Assembly: GCA_038063995.1 (NCBI GenBank)
Contig: JBBTUA010000003.1
Coordinates: 1 to 63,041, forward strand
Length of the DNA: 63,041 nt
Direction: 5' to 3'
Origin: Patescibacteria group bacterium
GTDB taxonomy: Bacteria; Patescibacteriota; Minisyncoccia; 2-02-FULL-40-12
Position numbers and translations under genes: made by a program
Notes under the pieces: model-generated
Databases searched by the model: none
Seen by the model: only the letters and a program-made list of their open reading frames with translations
Told to the model about the DNA's origin: nothing
In this document: positions 5,323-45,111 of the stretch, in pieces
How positions within the stretch are numbered: the first letter of the stretch is position 1
Layout: every line of letters starts with the position of its first letter

Positions 5323-6876
5323 ATGACCTCTAAAATATTCTCTGCCGCCATAATCGGCCTTGACGCCATTCCAATAGAGGTCGAAGTTGATGCCTCGCGC
5401 GGCCTGCCCTCTTTCAGCATTGTCGGCCTGCCGGATAAAACCGTCCAGGAGTCAAAAGACCGGATAAATTCAGCAATCAAAAATTCCGGACTGACCAATC
5501 CCAAAAAAGAAAATCTAAAAATTGTGGTCAATCTTGCCCCCGCGGATATTAGAAAGCAGGGGCCGCTTTACGATTTGCCGATCGCCGTTTCCTATCTTTT
5601 GAACACCAAACAAGTTGAATTTGACCATCAGAAAAAAGTTTTTGCCGGAGAGCTGGCCCTCGACGGCTCTTTAAGAAGCATATCAGCCGTTCTTTTGATA
5701 GCCCTGATGGCCCGCAACCTGGGGTTTAAAGAACTGATTCTGCCAAAAGCCAATGCCAAAGAAGCCGCTTTGATAAAAGATCTAAAAATCATCGGCCTTA
5801 ACAATTTAACTGAAGTAGCCGCCTATCTTTCTGGAAAAATTATAATCCAGCCCGAAAAAAACATTGATTTTTCAAAAATCATTTCCAATTCTGAATACGA
5901 TTTTGATATTTCCGAAATAAAAGGCCAGGAAACCGCCAAACGAGCTTTGTCTCTCGCCGCGGCAGGATTTCATAATGTATTGATGACCGGACCGCCGGGA
6001 GCCGGTAAAACAATGCTGGCCAAAGCCCTGCCCTCGATAATGCCCTCGCTTTCTATGGATGAGGCTCTTGAAATAACCAAAATACACAGCGTGGCCAACG
6101 CTTTCAAGTATTCGGATTCAAACGAACCAAAGAATTACATCATTAATCAAAGGCAGTTCCGGAATCCCCATCATACTGCTTCGGCCGTGGCTTTGGTTGG
6201 CGGAGGAAGCAATTTAAAACCGGGTGAAATAAGCCTGGCTCACCGCGGGATCTTATTCCTTGATGAATTTCCGGAATTTTCAAGAGATGTCATCGAAGCC
6301 TTGCGCCAGCCCCTTGAAGAAGGGAAAGTTTCTCTTTCAAGAGCCAATAATTCAGTTGCTTACCCGGCTAAATTTCTATTGGTTGCCTCAATGAATCCCT
6401 GCCCCTGCGGGAACCACCAAAACCCGCACAAAGAATGCCTCTGTACTCCGGGAGTAATAATGCGATACCAGAAAAAAGTATCGGGACCGATCTTGGACAG
6501 ATTTGATATTAAGCTCGATATACCCCAGGAAAATCCGAAAAAACTGAAGGAAGAGCCGGACTATAAAGAATCCGAAGAACTAAGACAAAAGGTTGAATTG
6601 GCCAGGGAAAAACAAAAAAGAAGATTCAAAGAACTTGGAATTTTAACCAACTCGGAAATGAATAACAAACAAGTGAGACGATTCTGTAAAATAGATGAAG
6701 AGAGCGAAAATTTTCTGGATAATTATGTGATGGATAAAAAACTAAGCCACCGGTCTTATTTCAAAATTCTAAAGTTGGCCCGAACCATTGCTGATTTGGA
6801 AGAAAGAGAAGATATAAGCCGGGAAGACCTCCAGGAAGCGGCAATGTACAAAAACGACTCGGTTCTGACGATTTAA
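5323..6876 (+). CDS. YifB/ComM-family Mg-chelatase-like AAA+ ATPase
   Basis: 517 aa; Lon-protease-like N-terminal domain, Walker A GPPGAGKT, LFLDEFPEF, C-terminal ChlI-type domain. Confidence 0.9.
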   Translation: MTSKIFSAAIIGLDAIPIEVEVDASRGLPSFSIVGLPDKTVQESKDRINSAIKNSGLTNPKKENLKIVVNLAPADIRKQGPLYDLPIAVSYLLNTKQVEFDHQKKVFAGELALDGSLRSISAVLLIALMARNLGFKELILPKANAKEAALIKDLKIIGLNNLTEVAAYLSGKIIIQPEKNIDFSKIISNSEYDFDISEIKGQETAKRALSLAAAGFHNVLMTGPPGAGKTMLAKALPSIMPSLSMDEALEITKIHSVANAFKYSDSNEPKNYIINQRQFRNPHHTASAVALVGGGSNLKPGEISLAHRGILFLDEFPEFSRDVIEALRQPLEEGKVSLSRANNSVAYPAKFLLVASMNPCPCGNHQNPHKECLCTPGVIMRYQKKVSGPILDRFDIKLDIPQENPKKLKEEPDYKESEELRQKVELAREKQKRRFKELGILTNSEMNNKQVRRFCKIDEESENFLDNYVMDKKLSHRSYFKILKLARTIADLEEREDISREDLQEAAMYKNDSVLTI

Positions 6877-6897
6877 GAATCGGAACGAAAAGCTTCC

Positions 6898-7406
6898 CTC
6901 GGCATAATCAGAATCAGAGCTCTCGGCCTGCTCTTTAGAAAGCTTGCGCGAGCAATATAAATTTCTTCATAGGGGCGGCCCTTCTTGGAAATGGCACGCC
7001 ACTTTGCTCGAATTGCCGATAAATCAGGGTACCTCCGCCATAGATTTATATATTCGGCAATTCTTCGCAAAGATACCGGCCATTTCTCAATAAACTTCCC
7101 AATTCAGAAATTTATATTTCTCGCCGCTTTCTAATTTTTAAATTTTCCCAATGAAAAGAAAACCATTTCAGAATCAGAGCCGCAGGGTATGAATAATTTC
7201 TGAACTTCAAGAGAATAGAATACAAATAACTGAAAGATATGAAGAATTGACGGATAACATTAGTGTTATTCTGATAAACAATATAATGGGGTAGGGGTTC
7301 CCCATTATATTGTCGGCAATTCAATATATCTGAAGATTATTTGTTCTATGAGCTTGAGAGAAGAAATTATTCATACCCGAGAGGCTCTGATTATGATTAT
7401 GCCGAG
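6898..7406. repeat. 509 bp non-coding element bounded by ~29 bp imperfect terminal inverted repeats (IR block A)
   Basis: ctcggcataatcagaatcagagctctcgg (6898-6926) matches the reverse complement of 7377-7406 with 1 mismatch and 1 indel. The interior is homologous in inverted orientation to 15237-16065. Confidence 0.75.
7172..7392. repeat. ~220 nt nested imperfect palindrome (copy A)
   Basis: Arms 7172-7253 and 7313-7392 pair (for example gggtatgaataatttc 7185-7200 with gaaattattcataccc 7363-7378). The apex holds hairpins ataaca-ttag-tgttat and acaatataatgggg...ccccattatattgt. Confidence 0.8.
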
Positions 7407-7417
7407 ACGATTTCCCA

Positions 7418-8503
7418 TTAATACCTTGCAAACGGGTTTCGGGCGCCGTGGACTTCGAAATGCAAATGGCAGCCGGTTGAGAGACCGGTTGAACCCATTA
7501 ACCCGACAAGCTGTCCTCGTGAAATATTCTGTCCGCCTAAAACCAAGAGACGAGACAAATGGGCATATAAAGTATATATCTCATTGCCGTGATAAATTTT
7601 AATATATTTCCCGGCTCCGCCATTCCAGCCGGAATTTGCCGCTCCAATTATCACTCCTTCAGCGGCCGAATAAATCGGAGTGCCGCAAAGATTTGCCACA
7701 TCAACGCCGTTGCGGCCATGAATACGGCCCCAATTATGACCTTGCGCAGGCAAAAAAAGCAGTCCGCCTAAATCAGGCAAACGGGCAAATCTTACATTGG
7801 AACGATAAGCCACATACTGACTGCCGATCTGGATTTTGCCGTCAGGAACAATCAATTCCTTGCCTGCCTCAAGAGTTCCGTTTTTTGGCAAACTATTGAA
7901 TTCCACGATCTTTTCTTCGTTCGCCGAATATTTCTTGGCTATTGATTGAATAGTATCTCCCTGCTTCACAAAATGGATAACGCCTGAAACCGGAGGAATT
8001 TTCAATTCTTGACCCGAACTTAAATAATCGCTATCTTTTAGGTTGTTGGCCCAAATCAAAGAACTGACGCTGATGCCGAAATCATTTGCCACCTGACCCA
8101 AGGTATCGCCGGGCTGAACAGTATAATTAACAACCTGATTCCTTTCGCCGTTTTCAAAAACAGAAGCCAGCGTCTGATAAGGCAGAAATGAATCCTGGAA
8201 AACATTGCGGCTGGATTCAACACCAGCTTCCAAAGCCTGATAAACCTGGCCTAAAAATAAATCATTATCGCTTGGAATACGGGAATCAATAAAAGCCGAG
8301 GTTTCTTCAATATAATCTTCCACTGCCAAGCTTAAAAGAGTGGCCTGGCCCTGCCCGGAACTGGATTTAAAAGAAAAAAGAATGACCGTAAGAGCCACAA
8401 AAACAAAAATAACCAGCCTTTCATTTTCAGCATATGATTTGTACTTATTGAAGTTCCTTTTGAATAAACCAAAAAAAAGGACTGCTTGGGGGTTTTTAAA
8501 CAT
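7418..8503 (-). CDS. LysM-domain M23-family metallopeptidase (cell-wall hydrolase)
   Basis: N-terminal TM helix, two LysM repeats (YTVQPGDTLGQVA.., HFVKQGDTIQSIA..), C-terminal M23 motifs (HGRNGVD, HLHFEV). Confidence 0.85.
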   Translation of the reverse strand: MFKNPQAVLFFGLFKRNFNKYKSYAENERLVIFVFVALTVILFSFKSSSGQGQATLLSLAVEDYIEETSAFIDSRIPSDNDLFLGQVYQALEAGVESSRNVFQDSFLPYQTLASVFENGERNQVVNYTVQPGDTLGQVANDFGISVSSLIWANNLKDSDYLSSGQELKIPPVSGVIHFVKQGDTIQSIAKKYSANEEKIVEFNSLPKNGTLEAGKELIVPDGKIQIGSQYVAYRSNVRFARLPDLGGLLFLPAQGHNWGRIHGRNGVDVANLCGTPIYSAAEGVIIGAANSGWNGGAGKYIKIYHGNEIYTLYAHLSRLLVLGGQNISRGQLVGLMGSTGLSTGCHLHFEVHGARNPFARY

Positions 8504-8581
8504 TAAAATCCTCTTGCGAGGACTACAACTATTGTAGGAAAAATGAGCTTAAAGTCAAATAATAATATCCACAATTAAAAA

Positions 8582-8734
8582 ATGACGGTTCCAAGAAAAC
8601 ACACAACCAAAAGCAGCCAAGGTCAAAGAAGACAGCACCTGAAACTAAGAAAAATGAGGCTTTTACCCTGCCCAAAATGCGGGAATTTTAGAATGCCTCA
8701 TAAGATGTGTAAAACTTGTGGGTTTTACAAATAA
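8582..8734 (+). CDS. rpmF: 50S ribosomal protein L32
   Basis: Hand-translated 50 aa: MTVPRKHTTKSSQGQRRQHLKLRKMRLLPCPKCGNFRMPHKMCKTCGFYK, with the CxxC...CxxC zinc ribbon. Below the ORF-track length cutoff. Confidence 0.85.
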   Translation: MTVPRKHTTKSSQGQRRQHLKLRKMRLLPCPKCGNFRMPHKMCKTCGFYK

Positions 8735-8747
8735 AAACCACTAATAA

Positions 8748-9212
8748 ATGGCCTCCAGACATTTAGCCAGATCAATCGCAATCCAGTCCCTTTACGAGTG
8801 GGATTTTAAAAATTACCCTACTGAATTTTTACCCGAAATCATTAAAAGAAACATTGAAGAGTTTGGCCCGGGGCTCAAAGACCAGGAATTTGTTGCAAGC
8901 CTGATAAACGGAGTGGTAAGCCATAGAAAAGAGATCGATAATATCATTGAAAAGGCGGCGCCGATGTGGCCGATTGATCAAATCGATATGATTGACCGAA
9001 ATGTTCTGCGCTTGGGCCTTTATGAACTTATATACGAAAACAAAGAAGAGGTTCCGCCAAAAGTAGCCATAAATGAGGCAATTGAACTGGCTAAGAGTTT
9101 TGGCGGTGAAAGTTCGGGAAAATTCATAAATGGAGTTTTAGGAACTGTCTATAGAGAAATAGAGAAAGGCGGCTCCGAAAATAAGAACAGCGATTCCGCA
9201 ACGAATCGCTAA
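8748..9212 (+). CDS. nusB: transcription antitermination factor NusB
   Basis: 154 aa; RHLAR..A.Q.LYE start and NusB fold motifs. The last 8 codons and the stop lie in repeat copy 9186-9240. Confidence 0.9.
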
Positions 9213-9240
9213 AGCGATTCGGCGGAACCTTCGACGAGCA
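9186..9240 (+). repeat. GC-rich palindromic repeat, copy 2 (forward)
   Basis: aacagcgattccgcaacgaatcgctaaagcgattcggcggaaccttcgacgagca. Confidence 0.85.
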
Positions 9241-9938
9241 TGGAGACAAACAAAATATTTGAATTTGAAAAAAAACTCGGCATCAATTTTAAAAACCGCG
9301 ACTTATTGCTTGAAGCCTTAACCCATCGTTCTTATCTTAACGAGCGGCCCGACTGGCACATCGACAACAATGAAAGGCTTGAATTTCTTGGAGATGCCGT
9401 TTTAGAATTGATCGTCACCGAAAATCTTTTTAAAAACCACAAGGAGCCGGAAGGAATCTTAACTTCCTGGCGGGCGGCTTTAGTAAATTCCGACATCCTG
9501 GCCGAGATTTCTAAAAAATTGGATCTAAATGAATATGTCTTGCTTTCTCAAGGCGAAAGAAAAGATAACGGCCGAGCTAGACAATATATTTTGGCCAATG
9601 CCTTGGAAGCTGTCATAGGAGCCGTTTATTTGGATCAAGGCTATGAAGAAACCAGAAAACTTGTTGAAAAAAACATCCTTTCTGAATTTTCCAGAATCCT
9701 GGATCAAAAATTGTATAAAGACTCGAAGTCTCTTTTTCAGGAAAAAGCCCAGGAAATAGAAAACACAACTCCTTCTTATAAGGTCTTGGACGAATGGGGG
9801 CCGGACCATTCCAAAACTTTCAAAGTCGGCGTTTATTTGAACGAGGAATTGACCGGAGTCGGATTAGGGCCTTCGAAACAGGAAGCCCAGCAGAAAGCCG
9901 CCGAAGAAGCTCTTCACAAAAAAGGATGGGAATGGTAA
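9240..9938 (+). CDS. rnc: ribonuclease III
   Basis: RNase III signature ERLEFLGDAVLEL plus a C-terminal dsRBD. Confidence 0.95.
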   Translation: METNKIFEFEKKLGINFKNRDLLLEALTHRSYLNERPDWHIDNNERLEFLGDAVLELIVTENLFKNHKEPEGILTSWRAALVNSDILAEISKKLDLNEYVLLSQGERKDNGRARQYILANALEAVIGAVYLDQGYEETRKLVEKNILSEFSRILDQKLYKDSKSLFQEKAQEIENTTPSYKVLDEWGPDHSKTFKVGVYLNEELTGVGLGPSKQEAQQKAAEEALHKKGWEW

Positions 9939-10012
9939 GGTAAGTAAATAAAGGCTTTTACTTGCCTTAGAATGGTCAAGAAAGAACAAGAAAGACAGAA
10001 TAGATAGAAATT

Positions 10013-10321
10013 ATGGCTGAAAAATACAACGATCAAGAATTCGTAGAATATATTGTCAAATCATTAGTCAATCATCCTGACGATGTTATGGTGGATAGGC
10101 GCGTAGACGAAATGGGTGTTCTTTTAACCTTAAAAGTTAATCAAGCTGATATGGCCTTGATAATCGGCAAAAAAGGTTCTACGGCAAGAGCCATAAGAAC
10201 CTTAGCAAGAATAGTCGGTCTAAGAAACCACGCCAGAGTGAATTTCAAGATTGAAGAGCCCGAAGGCTCAATGAGAATGCAAAAAGGAGAAATGGAATCA
10301 GTCGTTGACGAACTTAAATGA
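10013..10321 (+). CDS. KH-domain RNA-binding protein (UPF0109/YlqC-like)
   Basis: IIGKKGSTARAIRTL KH motif; located upstream of trmD as in rpsP-ylqC-rimM-trmD operons. Confidence 0.75.
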   Translation: MAEKYNDQEFVEYIVKSLVNHPDDVMVDRRVDEMGVLLTLKVNQADMALIIGKKGSTARAIRTLARIVGLRNHARVNFKIEEPEGSMRMQKGEMESVVDELK

Positions 10322-10429
10322 TTTTAGTTAAATAGACCTTTCTACTGCAATCTGTAAATTTACGAAAAGCTATCTAACTAAAATCATAGAAAATTAAGGG
10401 GCTGGGTTAGCCCTTTTAATTTAACGGAA

Positions 10430-11065
10430 ATGAGGTTTGATGTCATCACAATCTTCCCTGAAATTTTTGATTCTTTTCTTAAAGAGTCGCTTTTAGCTAA
10501 GGCCATTGATAAAAAAATAATCAAAATAAATATTCATAATCTAAGGAATTTTGCTTACGGCAAACACCAAATAGTGGATGATAAGCCCTATGGCGGCGGG
10601 CCGGGAATGGTCTTGAAAATTGAACCGATTCACAAAGCAATCAAAAAGATAAAAAAGAAAGACTCAAAAGTAATATTTTTATCTCCCCGGGGCAAAAAAT
10701 TCAACCAAAGCCTTGCGCGAAAATGGGCTAAAAACTTAAAACAGCTGATAATAATTTCAGGCCGCTACGAAGGCCTCGATGAAAGAGTTAAAAAAATGGC
10801 TGACGAGACTATAAGCGTTGGTGATTTCATAACCCTTGGCGGCGAAATTCCGGCAATGGCGATTATCGAAGCCGTGGCGCGGCTTAAACCTCGCGTAGTC
10901 GGTCGCGTAGAATCAATAGAAAAACTGGATTTCCCCCAATACACCCGGCCTGAAATTTTTTCTCCTAAAAAAGATGTCAATTGGACTGTCCCCAAAGTTT
11001 TAGTTTCCGGAAACCACAAAAAAATAGAAGAATGGAGAAAAAAACAGGCTAAAGAAATCAAATGA
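10430..11065 (+). CDS. trmD: tRNA (guanine37-N1)-methyltransferase
   Basis: MRFDVITIFPE..., DDKPYGGGPGMV, GRYEGLDERV motifs. Confidence 0.92.
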   Translation: MRFDVITIFPEIFDSFLKESLLAKAIDKKIIKINIHNLRNFAYGKHQIVDDKPYGGGPGMVLKIEPIHKAIKKIKKKDSKVIFLSPRGKKFNQSLARKWAKNLKQLIIISGRYEGLDERVKKMADETISVGDFITLGGEIPAMAIIEAVARLKPRVVGRVESIEKLDFPQYTRPEIFSPKKDVNWTVPKVLVSGNHKKIEEWRKKQAKEIK

Positions 11066-11472
11066 GCACCAGGGAGTTTGGACTATTTGCCGAAGGTATT
11101 GCCAGGCATTATCTTATTAAAAAAGGCTATAAAATCTTGGCCTCGAACTTTAAACTAAAATTTGGCGAGCTGGATATTGTCGCCCAAAAAGAAGATAAAA
11201 TAATCTTCTTTGAAGTAAAGGCCCTTAAAAACTCCTACGAAGACTATAATCCCGAAATGAGGGTTGATTACAAAAAGAAAAATAAATTAATTAAGCTTGG
11301 TCAAGCTTTTATGCTGTATAAAAAGCTGGATGATGTGCCCTGGCAGATAGATGTTATTTCGGTCACCTTGGATCCAGAAAATAGACCCGAAAAGTCCCGT
11401 GAGGGACCTCGGGTCACCTTTACGGGAAAAGCGAAAATAAAACATTTTAAAAATGCGTTCAGTGATAACTGA
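11062..11472 (+). CDS. YraN-family (UPF0102) endonuclease-like protein
   Basis: GE..A..YL...GY.IL..N.....GELDIVA......FFEVK motif. Confidence 0.75.
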   Translation: MSTREFGLFAEGIARHYLIKKGYKILASNFKLKFGELDIVAQKEDKIIFFEVKALKNSYEDYNPEMRVDYKKKNKLIKLGQAFMLYKKLDDVPWQIDVISVTLDPENRPEKSREGPRVTFTGKAKIKHFKNAFSDN

Positions 11473-11965
11473 AAATCAAAAAGAAACAAAAAAAATTGCC
11501 GGCGAGCTGGCTAAAAAACTGATTAGAAAAAAACCGGAAAAAGCCCTGGTTATAGCTTTATCCGGAGAGTTAGGAAGCGGCAAAACAACTTTTGTGAGCG
11601 GTTTTTCAAAAATACTGGGAGTTAACGAAAAAATCTTAAGTCCTACCTTTATTATAATGCACAAACACGAATTAAACCCTGGCAAAAAACCAAACAGCGA
11701 TTCCGCAACGAGCCGCAAGCGGCTCGGCGGAACCTTCGACGAGCAACATAAAACCTATAAATTTCTCTATCATATTGACGCTTACCGGCTAGAAAACAAA
11801 AATGACTTATTAAAACTCGGAGTTAAAAAACTTTTTTATAATCCTGAAAATATCGTTATGATCGAGTGGGCTGATAAAGTTAAAAAGATAATACCAAAAA
11901 GAACTGTCTGGATATATTTTAAACATTCAGGCAAAAATAAAAGAACAATAAATTATCACCTTTGA
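11453..11965 (+). CDS. tsaE: tRNA t6A37 biosynthesis ATPase TsaE, carrying an in-frame repeat insertion
   Basis: Walker A GELGSGKTTF, SPTF, LYHIDAYRL motifs. The 18-codon segment NSDSATSRKRLGGTFDEQ is encoded by repeat copy 11693-11746. Confidence 0.8.
   Translation: MRSVITENQKETKKIAGELAKKLIRKKPEKALVIALSGELGSGKTTFVSGFSKILGVNEKILSPTFIIMHKHELNPGKKPNSDSATSRKRLGGTFDEQHKTYKFLYHIDAYRLENKNDLLKLGVKKLFYNPENIVMIEWADKVKKIIPKRTVWIYFKHSGKNKRTINYHL
11693..11746 (+). repeat. GC-rich palindromic repeat, copy 3 (forward)
   Basis: aacagcgattccgcaacgagccgcaagcggctcggcggaaccttcgacgagcaa; the core is identical to copy 1. Confidence 0.85.
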
Positions 11966-11966
11966 A

Positions 11967-14336
11967 ATGAAGAAATTGATACTTGTCGATGCAAACGCAG
12001 TGATCCACCGAGCTTTCCATGCCTTGCCGCCTCTTAAAAGCCAAAAAGGCATAGTGACCAACGCGGTTTTCGGATTTTCCTCCATCCTCTTAAAAATGCT
12101 GAAAGATCTGGAGCCAGACTACGTTGTCGCGGCCTATGATCTTCCTGGACCGACTTTCCGCCACGAAGCTTACAAAGAATACAAAATCCACCGGGCAAAG
12201 ACACCGGATGAACTTTCAAACCAAATGCCTTTAACCAAAGATGTGCTTAAATCATTTGGCATTCCGGTTTTGGGAAAAAAGGGGTACGAAGCCGACGACA
12301 TCATTGGCTCCCTCGTGGAAAAATTCAAAAAAGAAAAAGATTTAAAAATAATCGTGGTGACCGGAGATTTGGATACTTTGCAGCTGGTAAAAGACAAAAA
12401 AGTTGTAGTCTATACGATGAAAAGAGGGCTTTCAGACACGGTAATTTACGATGAAGATACGGTAATGGAAAGATTCAACTTAAAACCTGAACAGCTAACC
12501 GATTATAAAGGACTGAAAGGGGATCCTTCAGACAATATTCCGGGAGTTAAAGGCATCGGCGACAAAACCGCTTCTGAACTGATCAAAGAATACGGCTCCA
12601 TTGAAAATCTTTATAAAGAAGCCAAGTCTCCCAAAACTAAAATCAAGGAATCGATAAAAAAGAAGCTTCTTGAGTCAGAAGAAGAGGCAATTTTTTCAAA
12701 ACACCTGGCAATGATGGTCAAAGATCTGGAAGTAGACGTAGATCTAAATCAAGCTGACTGGAAAAGCAATTTTAAACGGGCGGATTTGGAAAATTTGTTC
12801 AAAGAATTCAGCTTTTCGAGTTTAATTGCCAGAATTCCTGATTTAAAAAAACAGACTTTGTTCCCTGCGCCCCAAAAACTGGAACTGCCAAAATCAAGTG
12901 AATTCCCCGCTGATTTAAAAGATGGGGCCAAAAAAATACAAATTGCGGCTTGGCTCCTCAATTCAGAACTAAAGGAACCGATTTTGGATGAGGTTTATTT
13001 CGCCGAATTCGGCCAGTCAGTTCCTGATGGCCAATACAAAGAAAAAGATATTTCCAAACTATATGAAAGCTTGCAAAGAAAACTTAAAGACGCGGGCCTG
13101 AATAAAGTCTTTGAAGAAATTGAGTTGCCTTTAATTCCGGTCCTGGACGAAATGGAAAAAAACGGCATCAAAATTGATGAAAAGGCCATAAAAGAACTTG
13201 ACCGATTCGCCAAAAAAGAAATCGAAAAACTGGAGGATAAGATTTTCAAGCTTGCCGGAATTAAATTTAATATCAACTCAACCCAGCAGTTAAGCGAAGT
13301 CCTCTTTAACCGTTTAAATATCAGCGGCAAAATAAGAAAGACTCCCAAAGGAAAACTTTCAACCAAAGCCGCAGAGCTTGAAAAATTAAGAGAGGCTCAT
13401 CCGATAATTCCCCTGCTCCTTGAATACCGGGAATTGCAAAAACTCAAAACGACCTATATTGATCCGTTCCCCAAACTTACCGGGAAAGACGGCCGAATTC
13501 ATACTACTTTTATCCAAACAGGCACAGTCACCGGCCGTTTGGCTTCCCAAAATCCAAATCTTCAGAACATTCCCATAAAAACCGAGCTCGGCCAGAAGTT
13601 CAGAAAGATCTTTATCGCCGAAAAGGGCTACAAACTAGTTTCGCTCGACTATTCCCAGATTGATTTGAGAATCGCCGCTCATATCGCCGGCGACCAAAAA
13701 ATGACAGCCGCTTTCAAAAAAGGAGAAGACATCCACTTAAGAACCGCGGCCGAAGTATTTGAAATTCCACCGGAAAATATAACTCCGGCAATGAGAAGAA
13801 AAGCCAAAGCCTTGAATTTCGGAATAATCTACGGGATGGGGTCCCAAGGATTCGCCCGCTCCGCCGGAATAAAACAGGCTGAAGCAAAAAAATTCATAGA
13901 GAGATATTTTGAAGAATTCCCGAAAATAGCCGAATATATGGAGGAAATGAAGAATGAAGCCCACGAAAAAGGAATGGTCAAAAATCTTCTGGGAAGAAGA
14001 AGGCAGTTAAACGAGATCTATTCTTCAATTCCGGAAATGGTCAGACAGGCAGAACGGATGGCCATCAATTTCCCGGTTCAAAGCATGACCAGCGATATAA
14101 CAAAAATGGCGATGATAAAAATTTATGATTACATACAAAAAAATTATAAAAAAGAAGATATTAAAATACTGCTTCAGGTGCATGACGAAATTGTTCTGGA
14201 AGCTAAAGAGGACGTCGCCGAAAAGGCGGCCGAAGAATTAAGAAAAATTATGGAGAGTGTGTACGAGTTAGATGCATCGCTAGTCGCCGAAGCAAAGGCC
14301 GGAGACAACTGGCATGATCTAAAACTAATAAATTGA
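11967..14336 (+). CDS. polA: DNA polymerase I
   Basis: 789 aa; 5' nuclease domain (LVDANAV.HRAF, GDPSDNIPGV.GIG.KTA) and family A polymerase motifs (DYSQIDLR, NFGIIYGM, QVHDE). Confidence 0.95.
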   Translation: MKKLILVDANAVIHRAFHALPPLKSQKGIVTNAVFGFSSILLKMLKDLEPDYVVAAYDLPGPTFRHEAYKEYKIHRAKTPDELSNQMPLTKDVLKSFGIPVLGKKGYEADDIIGSLVEKFKKEKDLKIIVVTGDLDTLQLVKDKKVVVYTMKRGLSDTVIYDEDTVMERFNLKPEQLTDYKGLKGDPSDNIPGVKGIGDKTASELIKEYGSIENLYKEAKSPKTKIKESIKKKLLESEEEAIFSKHLAMMVKDLEVDVDLNQADWKSNFKRADLENLFKEFSFSSLIARIPDLKKQTLFPAPQKLELPKSSEFPADLKDGAKKIQIAAWLLNSELKEPILDEVYFAEFGQSVPDGQYKEKDISKLYESLQRKLKDAGLNKVFEEIELPLIPVLDEMEKNGIKIDEKAIKELDRFAKKEIEKLEDKIFKLAGIKFNINSTQQLSEVLFNRLNISGKIRKTPKGKLSTKAAELEKLREAHPIIPLLLEYRELQKLKTTYIDPFPKLTGKDGRIHTTFIQTGTVTGRLASQNPNLQNIPIKTELGQKFRKIFIAEKGYKLVSLDYSQIDLRIAAHIAGDQKMTAAFKKGEDIHLRTAAEVFEIPPENITPAMRRKAKALNFGIIYGMGSQGFARSAGIKQAEAKKFIERYFEEFPKIAEYMEEMKNEAHEKGMVKNLLGRRRQLNEIYSSIPEMVRQAERMAINFPVQSMTSDITKMAMIKIYDYIQKNYKKEDIKILLQVHDEIVLEAKEDVAEKAAEELRKIMESVYELDASLVAEAKAGDNWHDLKLIN

Positions 14337-14337
14337 T

Positions 14338-15237
14338 GTGCCCGAACTTCCAGAAGTAGAAACAATCGCAAAATATTTGAGGCCAAAAATAGTTGGTTTA
14401 AAGATAACCGATGTTTGGGCTGACCGTGAAAAACCGTTAAGACAGGCCGGCGGGCTTAAAAAGTTTTTAAAAGAAGTTAAAAACAAAAAAATCAAAGAGG
14501 TAAGGAGAAGAGCCAAATTCATTATTATTGATCTTGAAGGGCCTAAATCAATTTTTATTCATCAAAAAATATCAGGGCATCTGCTTTACGGAAAATGGAA
14601 GAAAAACAGAAACACTTGGAATTCTTTATCAAAAGGGCCGCTTCGCGATGACCCGCAGAATAAATACTTGCGGATAATTTTTTCATTGAATAACGGGAAT
14701 CAGCTTGCCTTATCGGATTTGAGAAGATTCGGAAAAGTACTACTTGTGGGAAATAAAGAAATAGAAAATTTGAATGAAATCAAAAAACTCGGGCCAGAAC
14801 CATTTGAAATAAATTTTGAAGAATTTAAAAATTTATTCAACCCTTCGATAAAACTCAAGGTAAGGAAAAAGGGACGGCTAAAACCTGTTTTGATGGATCC
14901 TTATTTTATCGCCGGGATCGGCAATATTTATTCAGACGAAATTTTGTGGGACGCCGGCTATCATCCCCTTTCCAGAGTTGAGAAACTAAAAGAAAAAGAT
15001 TTAAAAAAGGTATTTGACTCGACTATTAAGATTCTTAAAAAGGCAATCGAAAGTCAGGGTTCAAGCATAGATGACTACCGACTCCCGTCCGGCGAAAAAG
15101 GACATTATCAGGAAATTCAAAATGCTTACCAGCAGACCGGGAAAAAGTGCAAAAAAAGTGACGGCGGAGTAATCCAGCGTCTTAAAATCACCGGCCGCTC
15201 CGCACATTTCTGCCCGGTGCATCAAAAGAGACTATAG
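14338..15237 (+). CDS. mutM: formamidopyrimidine-DNA glycosylase
   Basis: N-terminal (M)PELPEVE, H2TH region, C-terminal zinc finger C..x..C...C; GTG start. Confidence 0.9.
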   Translation: MPELPEVETIAKYLRPKIVGLKITDVWADREKPLRQAGGLKKFLKEVKNKKIKEVRRRAKFIIIDLEGPKSIFIHQKISGHLLYGKWKKNRNTWNSLSKGPLRDDPQNKYLRIIFSLNNGNQLALSDLRRFGKVLLVGNKEIENLNEIKKLGPEPFEINFEEFKNLFNPSIKLKVRKKGRLKPVLMDPYFIAGIGNIYSDEILWDAGYHPLSRVEKLKEKDLKKVFDSTIKILKKAIESQGSSIDDYRLPSGEKGHYQEIQNAYQQTGKKCKKSDGGVIQRLKITGRSAHFCPVHQKRL

Positions 15238-15444
15238 CAAAAGTATAACCAATTTCTTCTCTCAAGCTCATAGAACAAATAATCTTCAGATATATTGAAT
15301 TGCCGACAATATAATGGGGAACCCCTACCCCATTATATTGTTATTGAAGAAAAAGAAAGTAAGGTAGCAATCCGTCAATTCTTCATATCTTTCAGTTATT
15401 TGTATTCTATTCCCTTGTAGTTCAGAAATTGGTTATACTTTTGC
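15237..15444. repeat. ~208 nt nested imperfect palindrome (copy B)
   Basis: gcaaaagtataaccaatttc (15237-15256) is the perfect reverse complement of 15425-15444. The interior matches copy A except for the outer stem and one apical sub-hairpin. Confidence 0.8.
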
Positions 15445-16065
15445 CAGTCTTTTTTGAGATTCCGTCTCGGCAGACCTCACCGGCGAAGCCCAAAGAAAAA
15501 AGCGGTTTGATGTTATCGTACCGCTTTGGAAGCTACATAAAGACCTCTGGCCTCTTCGGATTTTAGAACTTCTTTTGCATAGAACTGCAAGATATAATCC
15601 TTAGCTCACCTCCATATTAAGAACTCAACAAAACCAATATTTAACTAAGTTTCTAAAAGGCCTGAAAAAATGGCTTGATGCGCCTGTGCCTGAAATATTA
15701 GTTAGAATCTACTAGAGATACAAAATACTGGCTTTATTGAGCCCTAAATGCCTCAAAGAGAGAAATTTAACTATACCTACATTATAGCACTAAGATATAT
15801 AATTTGTCAAATGCAAACTTTTGGTCTCTGTTTTAGTATAGAAAGCAGATTAAAAAAGAAAAATAGAAAGCGGCAAGGCGTATCAATTTCTGAGTCGGGT
15901 AGTCGTCTTAGAAAATGGCCGGTATCTTTGCGAAGAATTGCCGAGCTTTAATAAATCTATAGTGGAGGTATCCTGATTTATCGGCAATTCGAGCAAAGTG
16001 GTGAGCCATTTTCAAGAAGGGCTCCCAAACGAAGAAATTGATATGCCTTGCGCAAGCTTTCTAAA
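15237..16065. repeat. IR block B: inverted-orientation copy of 6934-7378, with a ~400 bp extra insert
   Basis: 15251-15342 is a 92 nt perfect reverse-complement match to 7277-7368. 15855-16065 matches the reverse complement of ~6934-7140 with scattered mismatches. It lacks the terminal inverted repeats of block A. Confidence 0.8.
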
Positions 16066-16071
16066 TTCCTA

Positions 16072-17013
16072 ATGATCATCTTTCTCCACGGCCAAGACTC
16101 ATACAGTTTAATTCAATACGTAAACAATCTTATCGCCAGATACGAAAAAAAATATCCGGGCAGTTTTAATTTCCATCGCTTCGACTTGGAAGAAGACGAT
16201 CCTGCCGAAATCAAAAATGTAATCAAGAGTACATCGTTTTTCAAACAGGTAAAATTCGCAGTCGTCAAAAATCCATTTGCCAAAAGTGAAGTTATGGAAA
16301 AATTGATAAAGGAAAATAGCCTGGAAAAAGACAAAGATTCGGTTTTGCTTCTTTATCAAACAGGCGAAGAAGAAAAGTTTAAAAATTTGAAGTTATTTGA
16401 TTTATTGAATAAAACGGCTCAAATAAAAGAATTCAAACCGCCGGAACGGCCAAAAGCCGCGAAATTCGCCTCTGATTATCTTTCAAAAAACCAGATATCA
16501 ATAGAAAGAACAGCCTTGAATAAGTTAGTCAAAGAAGGCGGCTCTGATTTTTGGAGGCTTAAAAATGAACTTGATAAACTTATTAATTTTTCAAAACAGA
16601 ACAAAGCCATAAATCTAAAAGAAGAAGATCTTTCAAAGTTAGTCAGTTTTAAACTTGACCAGAATATTTTTAACATCCTTGACTCTCTTTTTTCAAACCA
16701 AAGCAAAGCTTTGCTTCTTCTAGAGGATTATTTTTCTTCCGGCGGCGACCCTCTTTACCTTATTTCAATGATTGCTTTCCAGCTAAAAAATATGCTAATA
16801 GTTCGAGAGTTGATAGACAAAAAAATGCAGTACGCCCAAATCCTTAAAAAGACCGGCATGCATCCGTTTTTCTTCAAAAAAATTTACGAGGCATCTAAAA
16901 AATACAGCCTTAGCGACTTAAAAAATATTTTCCGAAAAGCAGTTGATTTTGAAATGGCTTTAAAAACAGGCCAGGCTGAAGCTGAAACCGCTTTTTTCAA
17001 AATTTTTCTTTAA
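16072..17013 (+). CDS. holA: DNA polymerase III delta subunit
   Basis: N-terminal IIFLHGQDSY start and overall delta-subunit layout. The ORF track starts at a TTG (16048) inside the repeat; the ATG at 16072 is more plausible. Confidence 0.7.
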   Translation: MIIFLHGQDSYSLIQYVNNLIARYEKKYPGSFNFHRFDLEEDDPAEIKNVIKSTSFFKQVKFAVVKNPFAKSEVMEKLIKENSLEKDKDSVLLLYQTGEEEKFKNLKLFDLLNKTAQIKEFKPPERPKAAKFASDYLSKNQISIERTALNKLVKEGGSDFWRLKNELDKLINFSKQNKAINLKEEDLSKLVSFKLDQNIFNILDSLFSNQSKALLLLEDYFSSGGDPLYLISMIAFQLKNMLIVRELIDKKMQYAQILKKTGMHPFFFKKIYEASKKYSLSDLKNIFRKAVDFEMALKTGQAEAETAFFKIFL

Positions 17014-24274: not shown

Positions 24275-24877
24275 ATGACCCGGAAAAGCATCGTTCTTCT
24301 TACAATTCTTTTTGCGGTTTTCCTGGCGCTTTCCATTTCTGGAAATAGCCCCTCGACTCAAAATCAATCTTTCAAACCCAAGACAGCTAACACTCCGAAA
24401 CCGAATCTTCTGCCTTTAGACTTTAAGACAGACATTCAAGCTGTAAAAAATTTCATATCTCCAACTCCTAGACCGGTTTCAACTCATTCTTTAGCTAATA
24501 AATCGGCCAGCAAATCTTTTGAATCATTAAAAGAATTGCAGAATTCACTGAATATTTCTTTGGATTTAACCAGTGGCGGCAGTCCTTTTGGCGGGAAAGT
24601 AACTTATCTAACAGGCTGCGATAACTATTGCGGTCCGCTTTTTTGCGGCCTAGCCTATGAATTAATTTCTGTCGGCCCTCCAGTTGGCGGCTCATTCACA
24701 TTAACCTATGGAACTTCGGTTTACAGAGAATTCGACGAATCAGTGGGGAATTGGGTTTTGGGCTTAACTACCGGAAACTCTGAAACTTGTTGGCAATGTA
24801 TAGTCACTTTTGAAGGACCGATTTGTGTACCCATTGGAGGAGGAGAAGAAATAAATATAATGGGCACAAGCAACTAA
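24275..24877 (+). CDS. secreted Cys-rich protein, unknown function
   Basis: 200 aa; signal-peptide-like N-terminus (LLTILFAVFLALSISG) and a C-terminal domain with 8 Cys; followed by a terminator. Confidence 0.55.
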   Translation: MTRKSIVLLTILFAVFLALSISGNSPSTQNQSFKPKTANTPKPNLLPLDFKTDIQAVKNFISPTPRPVSTHSLANKSASKSFESLKELQNSLNISLDLTSGGSPFGGKVTYLTGCDNYCGPLFCGLAYELISVGPPVGGSFTLTYGTSVYREFDESVGNWVLGLTTGNSETCWQCIVTFEGPICVPIGGGEEINIMGTSN

Positions 24878-24903
24878 ACTAGCCCTGTTTAGATTATGTT
24901 TAT

Positions 24904-24927
24904 AAACAGGTGACAACCTGTTTTTTT
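24904..24927 (+). terminator. rho-independent terminator
   Basis: aaacaggt-gaca-acctgttt followed by a T-run. Confidence 0.7.
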
Positions 24928-24935
24928 GATATAAT
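24927..24935 (+). promoter_or_regulatory. extended -10 promoter element TGATATAAT
   Basis: TGnTATAAT consensus match immediately after the terminator, ~50 nt upstream of the ATG at 24988. Confidence 0.45.
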
Positions 24936-24987
24936 CAAAGATGTAGATAAACTGCGGGAAAGCGGTGGTTTTTGCCATAGACAGCAT

Positions 24988-26721
24988 ATGCCAACCAAAA
25001 TAAAAATTCTTCTTTTTACAATGATTGCCGGAGCGGGAATAATTGTTTTTTCTGCTTTCACCAATATTAAAAATTACGCAAATTTGGGAGCCAGTATAAA
25101 TAAGACAATTGATGGAAAAACCGTAAATTCTGCAAACCAAATAAATGAATTAAACAAACCGCTTAGCCAAAAAAGCGACATAGACAAAGACGGGCTCTTT
25201 GATGAAGAAGAGCCAATCTACCGGTCAGATCCGTTAAACCCGGATACTGACGGTGACGGCTTTCTTGACGGCGAAGAAGTTGCGGCCGGGTGCAGCCCTA
25301 TTTCCGCATCACAGAAAGATTGCCAGCTTAAACCGGGAATCAGCCAGACCAATCTCAACCTAACTGAATATTTTACTTCTCTCATAGTCGGCGGCTTTTT
25401 ATCCAAAGATCTTGATAAATCGGATCCTGGCTACTTGAAACATATTGATTCATTGGTTCAAGAAGCTTCCCAAATTAAAAAAACTCTTCTTTCCGCAGAT
25501 CAGCCTGATTTTGAAAAACAGAATTCAAATAAGCCGGAGTTATCAAATCAGGAATACCTAAATCAGTTTGAAAATATTTTAAGAAACCATTTTTTAAAAA
25601 AGAAGCCCAAAGGAATTCAAGCAAACTCTGACTTTGATTACTCGCCGTATCTGAAAGATGCGGGAACAACTTATGAAAAGCTGGCTAAGCTAAACTCGCC
25701 CAAAGAACTGGCTGAATTTCATAAAGAATCTCTGAATTTCTTTTATCAGCTGAAAAGTTATTTTTCGAATCTTCAAAATAAAGATGGGGACCCGATCAAA
25801 GCGCTTTTAAGTTTAGAGCAAACCGAACAGCTAACGGATAAATATAGAGCTTTCTTGAGTATCCTTCCGTTGCCAGGGATAGTGGTTCCGGTTGATGATG
25901 CCAGAGCAATACAGCTTTTGCATAATTTAAGAGATAAAGAACTAATAGACGATCCTGCTCAAAGAGCATTAGCCTCGGAAAACTTAAATTTAGCTACAAC
26001 TGAAATAATCCGCTTACTTCAGGCAATGGGCAGAAAAGGAGATATAAATGATACCGGCACTTTAAATATTTTCGTAGATAACTGGAGAAATTTTTCTCTT
26101 GAGGGCCAGTACCGGGCCGAAGATTTCTGGAGAGGCCTTCTTGATATAGCAGCAAACGGAACAGACACGGGAGTCCCCCCTCTGCTTTGCGACCATATAA
26201 GGAACAGCGAGGCCTTTAATGCGCTCCGTCCAAGAAAAATTGATAACCTAATCGAGAGCGGAATTCAAAGAAGAGTCGGTTCCTTACAGGAATACCTTGT
26301 CGCAACAAAATGCGATACTTTTGTTGATAAAAACTATGATATTTTTATGCAAGACTTTTCTGCCGGCGGAGGCTGGGATATGTGGTTTAAGTTAATTGAA
26401 CCGCAAAACAATATTTTCGGGGCAATTGATCTTGCTCTAGGTGAATTGAATCGACAAAGACAGGTCGAAGAACAATCTGATCTCCAAGAAGCAAATTCAG
26501 GCAGCGGCTATCTAGGCAGAAGACAATGTCTCTCCACTGGCTCCTCGGGGCAATGTGTCATATGGAGTCCTGTTAATATTCCGGCAAATCTAGCGGTCGA
26601 GGTATTGGGAGCGCTATTAAATCAAAATCTGGGCTGGATAGTTGCCACAGATGAAGCCGGGGAAGGATTTGGAATCGAAATAAACCAGGTAATAGAAGCG
26701 ATTTTCGGACCGCAGGAATAA
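24988..26721 (+). CDS. large membrane-anchored/secreted protein with acidic Ca-binding-type repeats
   Basis: N-terminal TM helix (ILLFTMIAGAGIIVFSAF). DKDGLFDEEE..DPLNPDTDGDGFLDGEE resembles thrombospondin type-3-like repeats; the rest is unassignable. The track start 24910 (GTG) lies in the terminator, so the ATG at 24988 is preferred. Confidence 0.6.
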   Translation: MPTKIKILLFTMIAGAGIIVFSAFTNIKNYANLGASINKTIDGKTVNSANQINELNKPLSQKSDIDKDGLFDEEEPIYRSDPLNPDTDGDGFLDGEEVAAGCSPISASQKDCQLKPGISQTNLNLTEYFTSLIVGGFLSKDLDKSDPGYLKHIDSLVQEASQIKKTLLSADQPDFEKQNSNKPELSNQEYLNQFENILRNHFLKKKPKGIQANSDFDYSPYLKDAGTTYEKLAKLNSPKELAEFHKESLNFFYQLKSYFSNLQNKDGDPIKALLSLEQTEQLTDKYRAFLSILPLPGIVVPVDDARAIQLLHNLRDKELIDDPAQRALASENLNLATTEIIRLLQAMGRKGDINDTGTLNIFVDNWRNFSLEGQYRAEDFWRGLLDIAANGTDTGVPPLLCDHIRNSEAFNALRPRKIDNLIESGIQRRVGSLQEYLVATKCDTFVDKNYDIFMQDFSAGGGWDMWFKLIEPQNNIFGAIDLALGELNRQRQVEEQSDLQEANSGSGYLGRRQCLSTGSSGQCVIWSPVNIPANLAVEVLGALLNQNLGWIVATDEAGEGFGIEINQVIEAIFGPQE

Positions 26722-26725
26722 ATTT

Positions 26726-28852: not shown

Positions 28853-28854
28853 AA

Positions 28855-29292
28855 ATGCCGACAACAATATACGAGTATAAAACTTACAATCCATATGATG
28901 TTTATTTAAACAGCAAGGGTCGAGATCCAACAAAAAATCTTCCCGAAAAATTTCAGGATTTTATTTTTGATGCCACACCAGCGGATTTCATTAAAGACCA
29001 AATTTCTGCGCCTTTAATCTTGAATGAAAACCAATCCCAAGAATTGGCAAAAATTGTTTTAGAACTGATTTTGGCCGACATTTATCTAGGAAATATAGTC
29101 CAAGAAATTAAAAATCGGCTGAAAATAACCGACGACCAGAAAGCGAAAACCATCGCCGGTTTGATTGTGAATGGCTTATTCGCTCCGATTCTGGAAGAAT
29201 TAAAGAAGATGCACATAGAGAAGTTTGCAAAGAACCTGCCAAAAACACCGCAGCAGGACGATAGAATAATTGATTTAAAAAATAACGTATGA
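28855..29292 (+). CDS. hypothetical soluble protein (145 aa) in the T4SS-like operon
   Basis: ORF abutting both neighbours (2 nt gap upstream, 4 nt overlap downstream); no family recognised. Confidence 0.55.
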   Translation: MPTTIYEYKTYNPYDVYLNSKGRDPTKNLPEKFQDFIFDATPADFIKDQISAPLILNENQSQELAKIVLELILADIYLGNIVQEIKNRLKITDDQKAKTIAGLIVNGLFAPILEELKKMHIEKFAKNLPKTPQQDDRIIDLKNNV

Positions 29293-29570
29293 GATTCCAA
29301 GTTCCCCAATTCATTGAAACTGAAACAAAAATAGTCGGCCCCCTGACCTGGAAACAATTCATCTGGGTGGCTATCGGAGTTGGCCTTTTGCTTCTTTTGT
29401 TCCGAATTGCTTCGGGCACTGTTTTTGTGTTTCTTTCGATCATAGTCATTGCCGTTTTCGGCGGCTTGGCTTTCCTTAGAATAGAAAACCTGCCTTTGAT
29501 AGAATATCTATCAAGGGCTTTGGGTTTTGCTTTAGGACCCAAAAAATACTTATTTAAAAAAGGAGAGTAA
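29289..29570 (+). CDS. PrgI/VirB3-like small two-TM protein
   Basis: 93 aa; MRFQVPQFIETETKIVGPLTWKQFIW N-terminal motif followed by two TM helices; directly upstream of the VirB4-like genes. Confidence 0.6.
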   Translation: MRFQVPQFIETETKIVGPLTWKQFIWVAIGVGLLLLLFRIASGTVFVFLSIIVIAVFGGLAFLRIENLPLIEYLSRALGFALGPKKYLFKKGE

Positions 29571-29574
29571 TGAA

Positions 29575-45027: not shown

Positions 45028-45082
45028 ATATTTTAAACAATTAATCCACAATTTGTGATCATTATATCCTTACTTTCCCTAC

Positions 45083-45111
45083 TTGACAATCTTAGGGGCT
45101 CGATATATAAT
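45083..45111 (+). promoter_or_regulatory. consensus sigma70-type promoter (TTGACA-17 nt-TATAAT)
   Basis: ttgaca 45083-45088, a 17 nt spacer, tataat 45106-45111; it points away from ruvB into non-coding DNA. Confidence 0.6.

Follow-up and report, generated by a model that had tools for sequence, protein, structure and literature searches.

Inverted repeats around a housekeeping gene block in a groundwater Patescibacteria genome: probable members of a dispersed family of long hairpins

Patescibacteria, also called the candidate phyla radiation (CPR), have some of the most compact genomes known, and repeats are considered uncommon in them. In Enterobacteria, the ERIC and YPAL families consist of imperfect palindromes of more than 100 nt that lie in transcribed intergenic regions, often after stop codons; ERIC itself measures ~127 nt, with a conserved central inverted repeat. 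They are thought to be RNA stem-loops that affect the fate of mRNA, and their presence and copy number vary among close relatives. Bacterial interspersed mosaic elements (BIMEs) are mosaics of repetitive extragenic palindromic (REP) subtypes joined by conserved linker motifs, and the Correia elements (CREE) of Neisseria, 100–155 bp long, have conserved 26-bp terminal inverted repeats and a TA target duplication. The attC sites of integrons measure 57–141 nt, carry conserved R and L boxes at their base, flank promoterless cassettes, and form same-orientation arrays beside an integrase. One account of CREE includes the statements that they can create promoters at their ends and that their RNA is bound or cut by RNase III (PMC2649163). 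REPs and REPINs are extragenic, dispersed and mostly arranged as inverted doublets with a short spacer; they are predicted to form hairpins in single-stranded DNA (ssDNA) or mRNA, show compensatory changes, and form clusters through insertion in or beside existing copies (PMC3116915). Here we describe two inverted repeats, the left and right arms, that bracket a 7.8-kb block of housekeeping genes in a 63,041-nt stretch of a Patescibacteria genome (GenBank assembly GCA_038063995.1, contig JBBTUA010000003.1), referred to as the window. The arms are probably two independent head-to-head doublets of elements that we call A and B, belonging to an undescribed family of ~200–230-nt long-hairpin intergenic repeats dispersed in this Paceibacteria-like genome and in its groundwater relatives. 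On the best reading, the family is most like the REPIN, ERIC and Correia kind of structured intergenic repeats and is new in Patescibacteria. The interest lies in this repeat family and not in the bracketing of the housekeeping block.

A repeat search of positions 6000–17000 and a self-BLAST of the window bore out the statement, made in a preliminary description of this sequence, that the arms are reverse complements of each other. Their similarity falls into two modules, which extend over 6934–7140/15857–16065 (A) and 7183–7380/15237–15444 (B). Module B (7187–7376 vs. 15438–15243 in the self-BLAST) has 89% identity across 196 nt (E 2e-67). The perfect run of 92 nt claimed for it is indeed its longest, and it falls within an inverted stretch of 100 nt (7277–7376/15243–15342) that is 97% identical. 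Module A, reported as a second module with scattered mismatches, is 83% identical over 208 nt (6934–7138 vs. 16065–15859; E 5e-56), with a longest perfect run of 32 nt (7054–7085/15913–15944). The repeat search gave further inverted arms at 7187–7255/15370–15438 and 6978–7049/15951–16022. The ~400 bp of extra DNA described in the downstream arm correspond to 414 bases at 15445–15858, between the two modules. Self-BLAST and nhmmer searches of the 63-kb window found no A or B copies beyond the two arms. Both inner junctions are gene 3' ends, as had been described, with the stop codon of the M23 peptidase gene at 7418–7420 and that of mutM at 15235–15237. The listed genes between the arms were confirmed by Pfam, although khpA and yraN (UPF0102) were missing from that list, and Pfam also identified the flanking genes as comM (+) on the left and holA on the right. 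Left of the block the non-coding gap is 541 nt (6877–7417); right of it the gap is 810–834 nt (15238 to 16047 or 16071, depending on which holA start is chosen). That such gaps are unusually large for the lineage also held, the same gene pairs overlapping or abutting in relatives.

The sequence and arrangement of the locus are identical in contig CAYHYT010000001.1 of the GenBank metagenome-assembled genome (MAG) GCA_964361065.1 and in assemblies of the Hainich aquifer in the European Nucleotide Archive (ENA), so the arms are not an artefact of one contig. The remaining contigs of the locus in other assemblies break within the repeats. Short-read contigs ending within or at the edge of hairpin elements include L001, L002, L006, L036/L038 and the ends of L066/L067, as well as the start of L004 (comparison loci, that is, contigs of relatives or metagenome loci, are labelled L0xx throughout). 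Contig ends at hairpins in several assemblies imply that the family systematically fragments these MAGs.

Both modules recur far beyond this locus. Scanning metagenome contigs with a B-core pattern (CTGARGATTATTTGTN{5,35}GAGAGAAGAAA) returned 25 further loci from several aquifer samples, and nhmmer found at least 30 B copies together with A-type copies in 10 comparison loci besides the window's two (L048, L046/L054, L060, L044, L059, L045, L042, L049 and L043). The 25 distinct full B copies fall into three subtypes and have in common the motifs TTTCTGAACT, ACAAATAACYGAAAG, AATTTGCCG...TCGGCAAATT, CTGARGATTATTTGT and CTTGAGAGAAGAAA. Similarity between the new loci and the window is confined to the elements, whose neighbours are unrelated housekeeping genes (rplO, rplU, rpsP, frr, greA, dnaB, dnaE, nrdJ, lepA, fmt and others). 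Small open reading frames (ORFs) adjoining the elements, like the other neighbours, have no similarity to one another, which ruled out the small ORFs as a family of partner proteins. Doublets were present in at least seven other loci, as A|B in L044, L048, L046/L054, L059 and L042 and as B|B in L052 (48-nt spacer); the spacers of head-to-head doublets range from ~30 to >600 nt. The L044 doublet occupies the nrdJ/lepA gap of contig CAYHYT010000005.1, from the same MAG as the window, so the number of A|B doublets in the window genome is three or more. In coverage, GC content and tetranucleotide profile, L046, L048 and L052 match this genome.

The left and right arms are not each other's nearest relatives. 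B_left is 90.6% identical and B_right 85.8% identical to the B copy of L044, and the two are 82.0% identical to each other. A_left is 96% identical to its counterpart in L048, with a 196-nt exact run, vs. 83% to A_right, with a 32-nt exact run. The implication that the arms form a special pair therefore fails, as they are members of a multi-copy dispersed family and not mutual closest relatives. Scans of viral contigs with two family patterns gave zero matches, hence no phage link. Searches of Rfam at gathering and permissive (E≤10) thresholds, covering the window, the arms, the spacers of relatives and ten B2/B3 loci, returned tRNAs, one 16S end and chance hairpins only, with tRNAs alone reaching the gathering score; the best matches on the arms were plant microRNA-precursor models (E 0.08–5), as expected of generic long hairpins. 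A tRNA/tmRNA scan found nothing in the arms, and the searchable literature on repeats in Patescibacteria, Parcubacteria and CPR gave no account of such a family. In L047 (1–472), a B3-type element lies ~150 nt downstream of a 16S rRNA 3' end on the opposite strand, which places the family in an rRNA operon spacer as well.

We derived a consensus fold for the B copies with RNAalifold and pair counting, using 500 shuffles and slid partners as controls. The consensus has 31 pairs that are 94.8% paired, and 82 double-change cells were observed, compared with 20.9 ± 5.2 after shuffling (0/500) and 9–19 with slid partners. Covariation extends to every one of the 12 pairs in the outer stem: its 12-bp sequence is changed in nearly every copy, and the inner helices are invariant. 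Beyond the outer stem, on the far side of a conserved purine loop, a basal stem, P0, covaries too. For the A type, the consensus comprises 55 pairs, of which 23 occur with at least two Watson–Crick types. In the family as a whole, then, conserved internal loops and core helices are invariant, and outer stems vary freely with pairing kept. The two B elements of the window illustrate this with block changes of the outer stem (GGGTATGAATAA...TTATTCATACCC in B_left vs. GTATAACCAA...TTGGTTATAC in B_right), and AATTTCT...AGAAATT stands beside the outer stem in all four window elements. Each of the four modules is a ~200-nt imperfect hairpin with a minimum free energy (MFE) of -77 to -82 kcal/mol and z-scores of -8.6 to -14.9. 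From the base inwards, A_left has a basal stem (TAGAAAGC/GCTTTCTA), the variable covarying stem and the conserved AATTTCT/AGAAATT; B_left has P0 (AATCAGAGCC/GGCTCTGATT), a GCA/GAGA internal loop, the outer stem as P1, and a conserved core with the apical hairpin ACAATATAATGGGG-TAGGGGTT-CCCCATTATATTGT. Copies of subtype B1 have a segment of ~20–30 nt, 5' of the apical hairpin, that is wholly different in each copy between near-identical flanks (7256–7276 and 15343–15369 in the window, 1850–1875 in L044); it forms a small hairpin in B_left and is unstructured and T-rich in B_right.

One strand of each element folds better than its complement, and we call it the forward strand. It was the more stable in 25/25 B copies (by a mean of -11.0 kcal/mol) and in 9/9 A copies (mean -10.2), the stabler strand of the A elements being the one opposite A_left(+). 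On the forward strand of B helices, G·U pairs outnumber A·C pairs 28 to 5; in A-type helices alone the counts are 10 and 9, which is uninformative, and their polarity was settled by the energy comparison. An nhmmer profile of B finds A elements solely on the strand opposite A_left(+). From the strand found by the B profile, the G·U excess and the strand energies it follows that A and B are homologous with one common polarity, and hence that each arm is a head-to-head pair. The left arm has A on the minus and B on the plus strand, the right arm B on the minus and A on the plus strand; the 5' ends face each other and the elements point outward. The family evolves like a folded single-stranded nucleic acid of one defined polarity.

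Gene order in relatives tells how the arms came to lie where they do. MutM homologs at 76–84% identity are plentiful in groundwater Patescibacteria, and for synteny we used L026, L028, L029–34 and L036 for the comM-to-mutM block and L035 and L039 for the mutM|holA side. A scan of genome contigs with PolA found relatives at no more than 46% identity, without elements, and these were unusable for synteny. The common order and orientation, kept in relatives with MutM identities of 77–84%, is dksA-comM-(M23)-nusB-rnc-khpA-trmD-yraN-tsaE-polA-mutM-holA-GT2-(recG), where GT2 is a family 2 glycosyltransferase. Wherever a contig covers the junction (L028, L029, L036 and L026), comM and the M23 gene overlap or abut; the overlap is ~5 nt as called in the first three, with ~2 nt between the convergent stops in the L028 sequence. 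A 4-nt overlap (ATGA) joins mutM and holA in both L028 and L035, the latter being the closest relative. The left-arm junction is thus tight in every relative examined, whereas for mutM|holA this is true of the closest relatives; across species, the mutM|holA spacer measures 0, ~290, ~840, ~1090 or ~1850 nt, a variable hot spot. Tight junctions in relatives together with unchanged gene order indicate that the arms are insertions into an ancestrally oriented block. Since the 7.8-kb block is in its ancestral orientation, the inverted arrangement of the arms is incidental. The features of the locus are collected in Table 1.

Table 1. Features of the two arms and the bracketed block, in window coordinates; for the hairpin elements, the strand is the better-folding (forward) one.
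Feature	Position	Strand	Details
8-mer GACGATTT on the comM/M23 side	6867..6874		Direct repeat at 7406-7413; a duplicate of the final bases of comM
23-nt inverted copy (96%) of 7384-7406	6898..6920		7384-7406 is the outer 3' flank of B_left; the pair encloses the whole left arm
A_left, A-type long hairpin, ~205 nt	6934..7140	-	MFE -77 kcal/mol, z -10.7; nhmmer E 1.9e-67
Spacer between left-arm elements	7141..7171		Short, A/T-rich
B_left, B-type (subtype B1) long hairpin	7172..7392	+	z -14.9; nhmmer E 2.8e-35
Second copy of GACGATTT	7406..7413		
Bracketed 7.8-kb block	7418..15237	M23 -, others +	M23/LysM peptidase, then rpmF, nusB, rnc, khpA, trmD, yraN, tsaE, polA, mutM (Pfam)
B_right, B-type (B1) long hairpin	15230..15449	-	z -8.6; nhmmer E 1.1e-35
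Conserved GC-rich pre-element motif GGGCTTCGCCGGTGAGGTCTGCCGAGACGGAATCTCAAAAAAG	15450..15491	-	Directly before B_right
Terminator-like hairpin AAAGCGGT-(13 nt)-ACCGCTTT	15492..15527	-	Followed by a T-rich run
Unique stretch of ~250 nt	15528..15774	-	Downstream of the promoter
Perfect sigma-70-type promoter, TTGACA-18-TATAAT	15781..15810	-	12/12, TG upstream; directed at B_right and the mutM 3' end
Conserved region across and upstream of the -35 box	15800..15846		83-88% identity to the corresponding mutM|holA site of L029-34, L037 and L039
A_right, A-type long hairpin	15857..16065	+	z -12.5; nhmmer E 2.7e-60

At the outer edge of the left arm, the inverted copy at 6898–6920 is probably the remnant of an older B-type end. 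The two copies of GACGATTT may be an 8-bp target-site duplication, but this is a single case and its left copy lies 23 nt outside 6898–6920; in relatives with empty sites (L028, L029 and L026), these last bases of comM overlap the M23 stop codon. The left-arm spacer yielded no promoter-like site. In the right arm, the basal stem of B_right overlaps the mutM stop codon, and A_right ends 6 nt before the holA ATG (16072, with holA called as 313 aa), with a weak promoter-like site in its 3' part (16038–16067), just before holA. The pre-element motif is also found 5' of forward elements in L037, L042, L045, L049, L050, L051 and L064. The terminator-like hairpin had been missed by a consensus scan because its loop exceeds 8 nt. 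Downstream of the promoter, the unique stretch has no ORF longer than 25 aa on the minus strand, no homolog elsewhere and no Rfam match. It may be either an orphan transcript or a decayed cargo gene like those that relatives carry at the same position; reading the insert as a small-protein gene or as a relic of the relatives' cargo was rejected, there being no ORF above 25 aa and no tblastn similarity.

Relatives carry such genes at mutM|holA in a recurrent architecture. In L037, another Hainich species, mutM is followed by a reverse-polarity hairpin, a 78-aa gene that reads from a perfect promoter to a terminator in the direction of mutM, a B-type element and holA. L039 has a small gene (73–96 aa) with a homologous promoter region, and a B-type element directly upstream of holA. 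Wherever the spacer bears a gene, the order is promoter, gene, terminator, a conserved GGGCTTCGCCGG...GGAATCTGAAAAAG motif, the forward element and finally the host gene, entered at its 3' end; the window's right arm, L037, L042 and L045 follow this order from promoter to forward element. The cargo proteins of relatives are mutually unrelated and have no known domain. In L026, a 336-aa gene lies at mutM|holA and a 70%-identical paralog (a 336/353-aa pair) lies between tsaE and polA. The -35 motif TTTGTCAAATGC, from within 15800–15846, is repeated at both of these insertion sites, and each gene adjoins a GC-rich hairpin with the basal frame of B_left, AGCC-GCA-GGGTAT...ATACCC-GAGA-GGCT. As a candidate for the family's transposase this pair was rejected, having no Pfam, NCBIfam, PHROG or Protein Data Bank match. 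It belongs to a Patescibacteria-wide family of 157 clusters, homologs of which adjoin bAvd and a reverse transcriptase in L070–72. Between the template repeat of L026 (10942–11055, non-coding) and the 3' end of the gene there are 17 mismatches at template adenines and 6 at other bases. The adenine-specific mismatches and the bAvd and reverse transcriptase neighbours identify the L026 cargo as the target gene of a diversity-generating retroelement (DGR) and not as a hairpin-mobilising enzyme. No reverse transcriptase was found within 20 kb of the L026 mutM|holA spacer (10942–12419), and the variable region of the paralog between tsaE and polA is undiversified. In L069, a small GIY-YIG ORF (892–1128) separates polA and mutM, and a UPF0150 (HicB-like) gene adjoins the DGR-target cargo; operon junctions of the block thus repeatedly gather selfish or accessory genes.

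How does this family compare with described ones? Like REPINs, A and B are dispersed, extragenic, multi-copy palindromic repeats that form inverted doublets and show compensatory changes, and the A|B and B|B doublets with their pre-element motif resemble BIME-like mosaics. Unlike REPINs, in which a 20–40-nt palindrome carries a highly conserved 16-mer, the units are multi-loop hairpins of 200–230 nt; the doublet measures ~450 nt instead of ~100 nt, and it is the interior that is conserved and the base of the stem that varies. No RAYT/Y1_Tnp or other transposase was found among window ORFs of at least 120 aa or in the Pfam lists of neighbouring contigs, which cover part of the genome, and no report of REPINs in streamlined CPR genomes was found in the searchable literature. 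ERIC resembles the A/B family in being an intergenic palindrome, often after stop codons and variable among relatives; A and B have no sequence similarity to it, and they differ in their several conserved asymmetric loops, strict strand preference and head-to-head doublets. With CREE and NEMIS they share the state of multi-copy intergenic hairpins beside genes, and the weak promoter-like site of A_right before holA recalls them, but the A/B termini are variable, there is no sign of a regular duplication, and the units measure ~200–230 nt.

We propose that the elements act mainly as RNA hairpins at the ends of transcription units, a role suggested by the fold and the gene context. The hairpins could be U-tract-independent 3'-end, insulator or stability elements, possibly RNase III substrates; a forward hairpin would mark or block the ends of transcripts that otherwise run antisense into the adjacent essential gene, and a doublet would serve each direction of transcription with its own optimal hairpin. 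In 14 of 29 copies, a convergent gene has its stop codon 0–38 nt from the forward 3' end; other copies are in 5' leaders. Transcription toward the forward element is supported by the 12/12 promoter (15810–15781) aimed at B_right. Spread may occur by REPIN-like copying, in which the same hairpin would be the ssDNA substrate of an enzyme encoded elsewhere in the genome. A hairpin as the ssDNA substrate of a copying enzyme is what has been proposed for REPINs (PMC3116915). The spacer of a doublet might further be a tolerated landing site for promoter-bearing accessory genes, a proposal drawn from the promoter and the decayed or orphan transcript of the right arm and from the small ORFan or DGR target genes of relatives.

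Several observations weigh against this explanation. Of 27 copies, a single one has a T-tract behind it when both strands are considered, namely B_right on the mutM strand, so the elements are not canonical intrinsic terminators. Window ORFs of at least 120 aa showed no domain of a transposase, a recombinase or an HUH enzyme, which leaves the copying mechanism a guess. Some forward copies belong to 5' leaders, with holA immediately downstream in the window, L037 and L039, where a strong terminator would be harmful unless the element also gives a promoter. Some copies are decayed or truncated (the 5' half in L063, a fragment in L054, a partial A in L029 and 6898–6920 in the window), a turnover typical of selfish repeats that argues against a function for every copy. 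Strand asymmetry and covariation fit recognition of ssDNA as well as of RNA, and since the aligned copies are related by descent, the shuffle statistics overstate their independence.

The preliminary description had instead read the arms as substrates for homologous recombination that flips the 7.8-kb block, with a population polymorphic for its orientation or a past inversion on record. RecA-type recombination on the 92–100-nt identical inverted stretch is possible in principle, and ruvB, ruvC and recG are present in the window; to that extent the repeats are long enough, as claimed, but no recombinant was seen in the assemblies. In the parental arrangement, the left-specific segment 7256–7276 joins ...AGAAATTATTCATACCC and the right-specific segment 15343–15369 joins ...AGAAATTGGTTATACTTTTGC. 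All assemblies that span a junction are parental and the rest break inside the repeat, so at the level of assembled contigs polymorphism is unsupported, although a variant of low frequency may have escaped notice; an exact-protein look-up also gave no recombinant neighbourhood. Short-read assemblies break exactly in the B core, and contigs alone could therefore hide alternative joins. A past inversion, however, is refuted by synteny, as all relatives, armless ones included, share the order and orientation of the block. Invertons and shufflons, which likewise bracket a segment with inverted repeats, have short repeats, an adjacent site-specific recombinase, and promoters or gene ends that are flipped. 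The window has no invertase or other site-specific recombinase near the arms, and its segment is an intact 7.8-kb housekeeping operon found only in the parental orientation in available assemblies; no switch function is apparent, because inversion would keep all block genes and promoters intact. With arms that are ordinary members of a multi-copy family, each closer to other copies, we regard the inversion reading as highly improbable. That the arms arose as an artefact of assembly, or as a recent local duplication without meaning, is barely credible. The contigs of other assemblies do end within the repeats, but an independent MAG contig has both arms in identical form, as a separate ENA assembly has the left one; the arms differ by 11–17% and by the 414-nt insert, and each resembles copies elsewhere more than it does the opposite arm.

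Three further readings accept the elements as a family and differ on what they are. They could be independent genes that encode a new class of structured non-coding RNA, rod-shaped and perhaps protein-binding, with the arms as paralogous RNA genes. Invariant purine-rich internal loops with covarying helices are the conservation expected of a functional RNA, the strand bias is strict, a perfect promoter stands upstream of B_right, and intact copies occupy orthologous sites across species, before holA (L037, L039 and the window) and after rplO (L051). We nevertheless consider this unlikely, as most copies lack a promoter and terminator of their own, head-to-head doublets have short spacers (30–50 nt), elements abut the stop codons of unrelated genes, some copies are decayed or truncated, and copy number and position differ among close relatives, with empty sites in L028 and L035. 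Lineage-specific insertion at otherwise tight junctions would also be expected of miniature inverted-repeat transposable elements (MITEs) or of composite-transposon ends moved by a DDE transposase, in which case the left arm, which resembles the right arm minus its 414-nt middle, would be an internally deleted right-arm element; the 23-nt inverted repeat at the left arm's outer edges and the possible 8-bp direct repeat around it would fit. In the A/B family, however, the termini are the most variable part and the interior the most conserved, the reverse of MITEs: terminal inverted repeats are not conserved between copies or common to the outer ends of A and B, and the outer stems differ in almost every copy. 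The one 8-bp candidate duplication is offset from the terminus, none is visible at the right arm, and the window has no transposase, which makes this reading quite unlikely. Very unlikely, in our view, is that the hairpins are structure-specific recombination sites, like attC, that capture gene cassettes into the doublet spacer. Like attC sites they are imperfect palindromes at the ends of variable genes, with structure conserved over sequence and a strand-specific fold. The cargo at mutM|holA differs by species (the 78-aa gene in L037, the 73–96-aa gene in L039, the DGR target in L026 and the orphan transcript in the window) and is accompanied by the conserved promoter-upstream region and the post-terminator motif, and the paralogous cargo of L026 sits beside a hairpin element at each of its two sites. 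Cargo is missing, however, from most doublets and most single elements; no integrase was seen, the orientation is divergent without same-orientation arrays, the tsaE|polA cargo is common to L026 and L068/69 and so apparently inherited and not shuffled, and size and motifs are unlike attC.

Against these alternatives, dispersed long-hairpin intergenic repeats in two independent doublets remain the probable identity of the arms. Only tentatively, and as an unlikely outcome, would we go further and see a new class of strand-specific element with conserved structure in ultra-small (CPR) bacteria, which would be either a self-propagating doublet several-fold larger than REPINs, with a spacer that serves as a safe landing pad in essential operons for accessory genes that bring their own promoter (DGR targets among others), or a multi-copy structured RNA with conserved protein-binding loops that insulates convergent genes where intergenic space is nearly absent. 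Extrapolating roughly from copy density on the contigs examined, the family may occupy on the order of 1–2% of such a genome. A fold-selected ~200-nt hairpin family would offer a tractable handle on how transcripts end and are insulated in CPR bacteria, on how repeats spread without visible transposases, and on where accessory genes may land within essential operons. In practical terms, the repeats break short-read assemblies at predictable sites, and inverted-repeat pairs drawn from the family can pass for inversion switches.

Elsewhere in the window, the ruvB-pilB gap (45082–45350, plus strand) is predicted to hold a likely unannotated small RNA gene, with a perfect TTGACA-17-TATAAT promoter, ~230 nt of structured sequence that a perfect stem of 25 bp (45168–45192/45321–45345) closes, and then TTTTTTATT. 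It has no Rfam match at E≤1 and no homolog in the comparison loci, and this long hairpin was checked as a possible family member and is unrelated to A and B. A run of genes without Pfam matches at 24275–32380, around a TraG/VirB4-like ATPase (30178–31935) and a TSP3-repeat protein (24910–26721), is possibly a CPR-type secretion or pilus cluster. The stretch 33565–38254 contains jag (R3H), yidC, dnaA (35568–36938) and dnaN (37154–38254), which puts the chromosomal origin region ~20 kb to the right of the bracketed block; most genes left of dnaA point toward it, and the cumulative GC-skew minimum is at ~25–26 kb, not at dnaA. On the minus strand at 59500–62949, beside a tRNA cluster, a 1149-aa protein has as its sole domain match Peptidase_S74, an endosialidase or tail-spike-type intramolecular chaperone. 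In L065 (6001–9831), from the same MAG as the window, an intein with a LAGLIDADG endonuclease interrupts the B12-dependent ribonucleotide reductase, and Logan contigs of this reductase gene stop 54 nt past its stop codon, at the third A|B doublet. The UvrD homolog of L039 also bears an intein.

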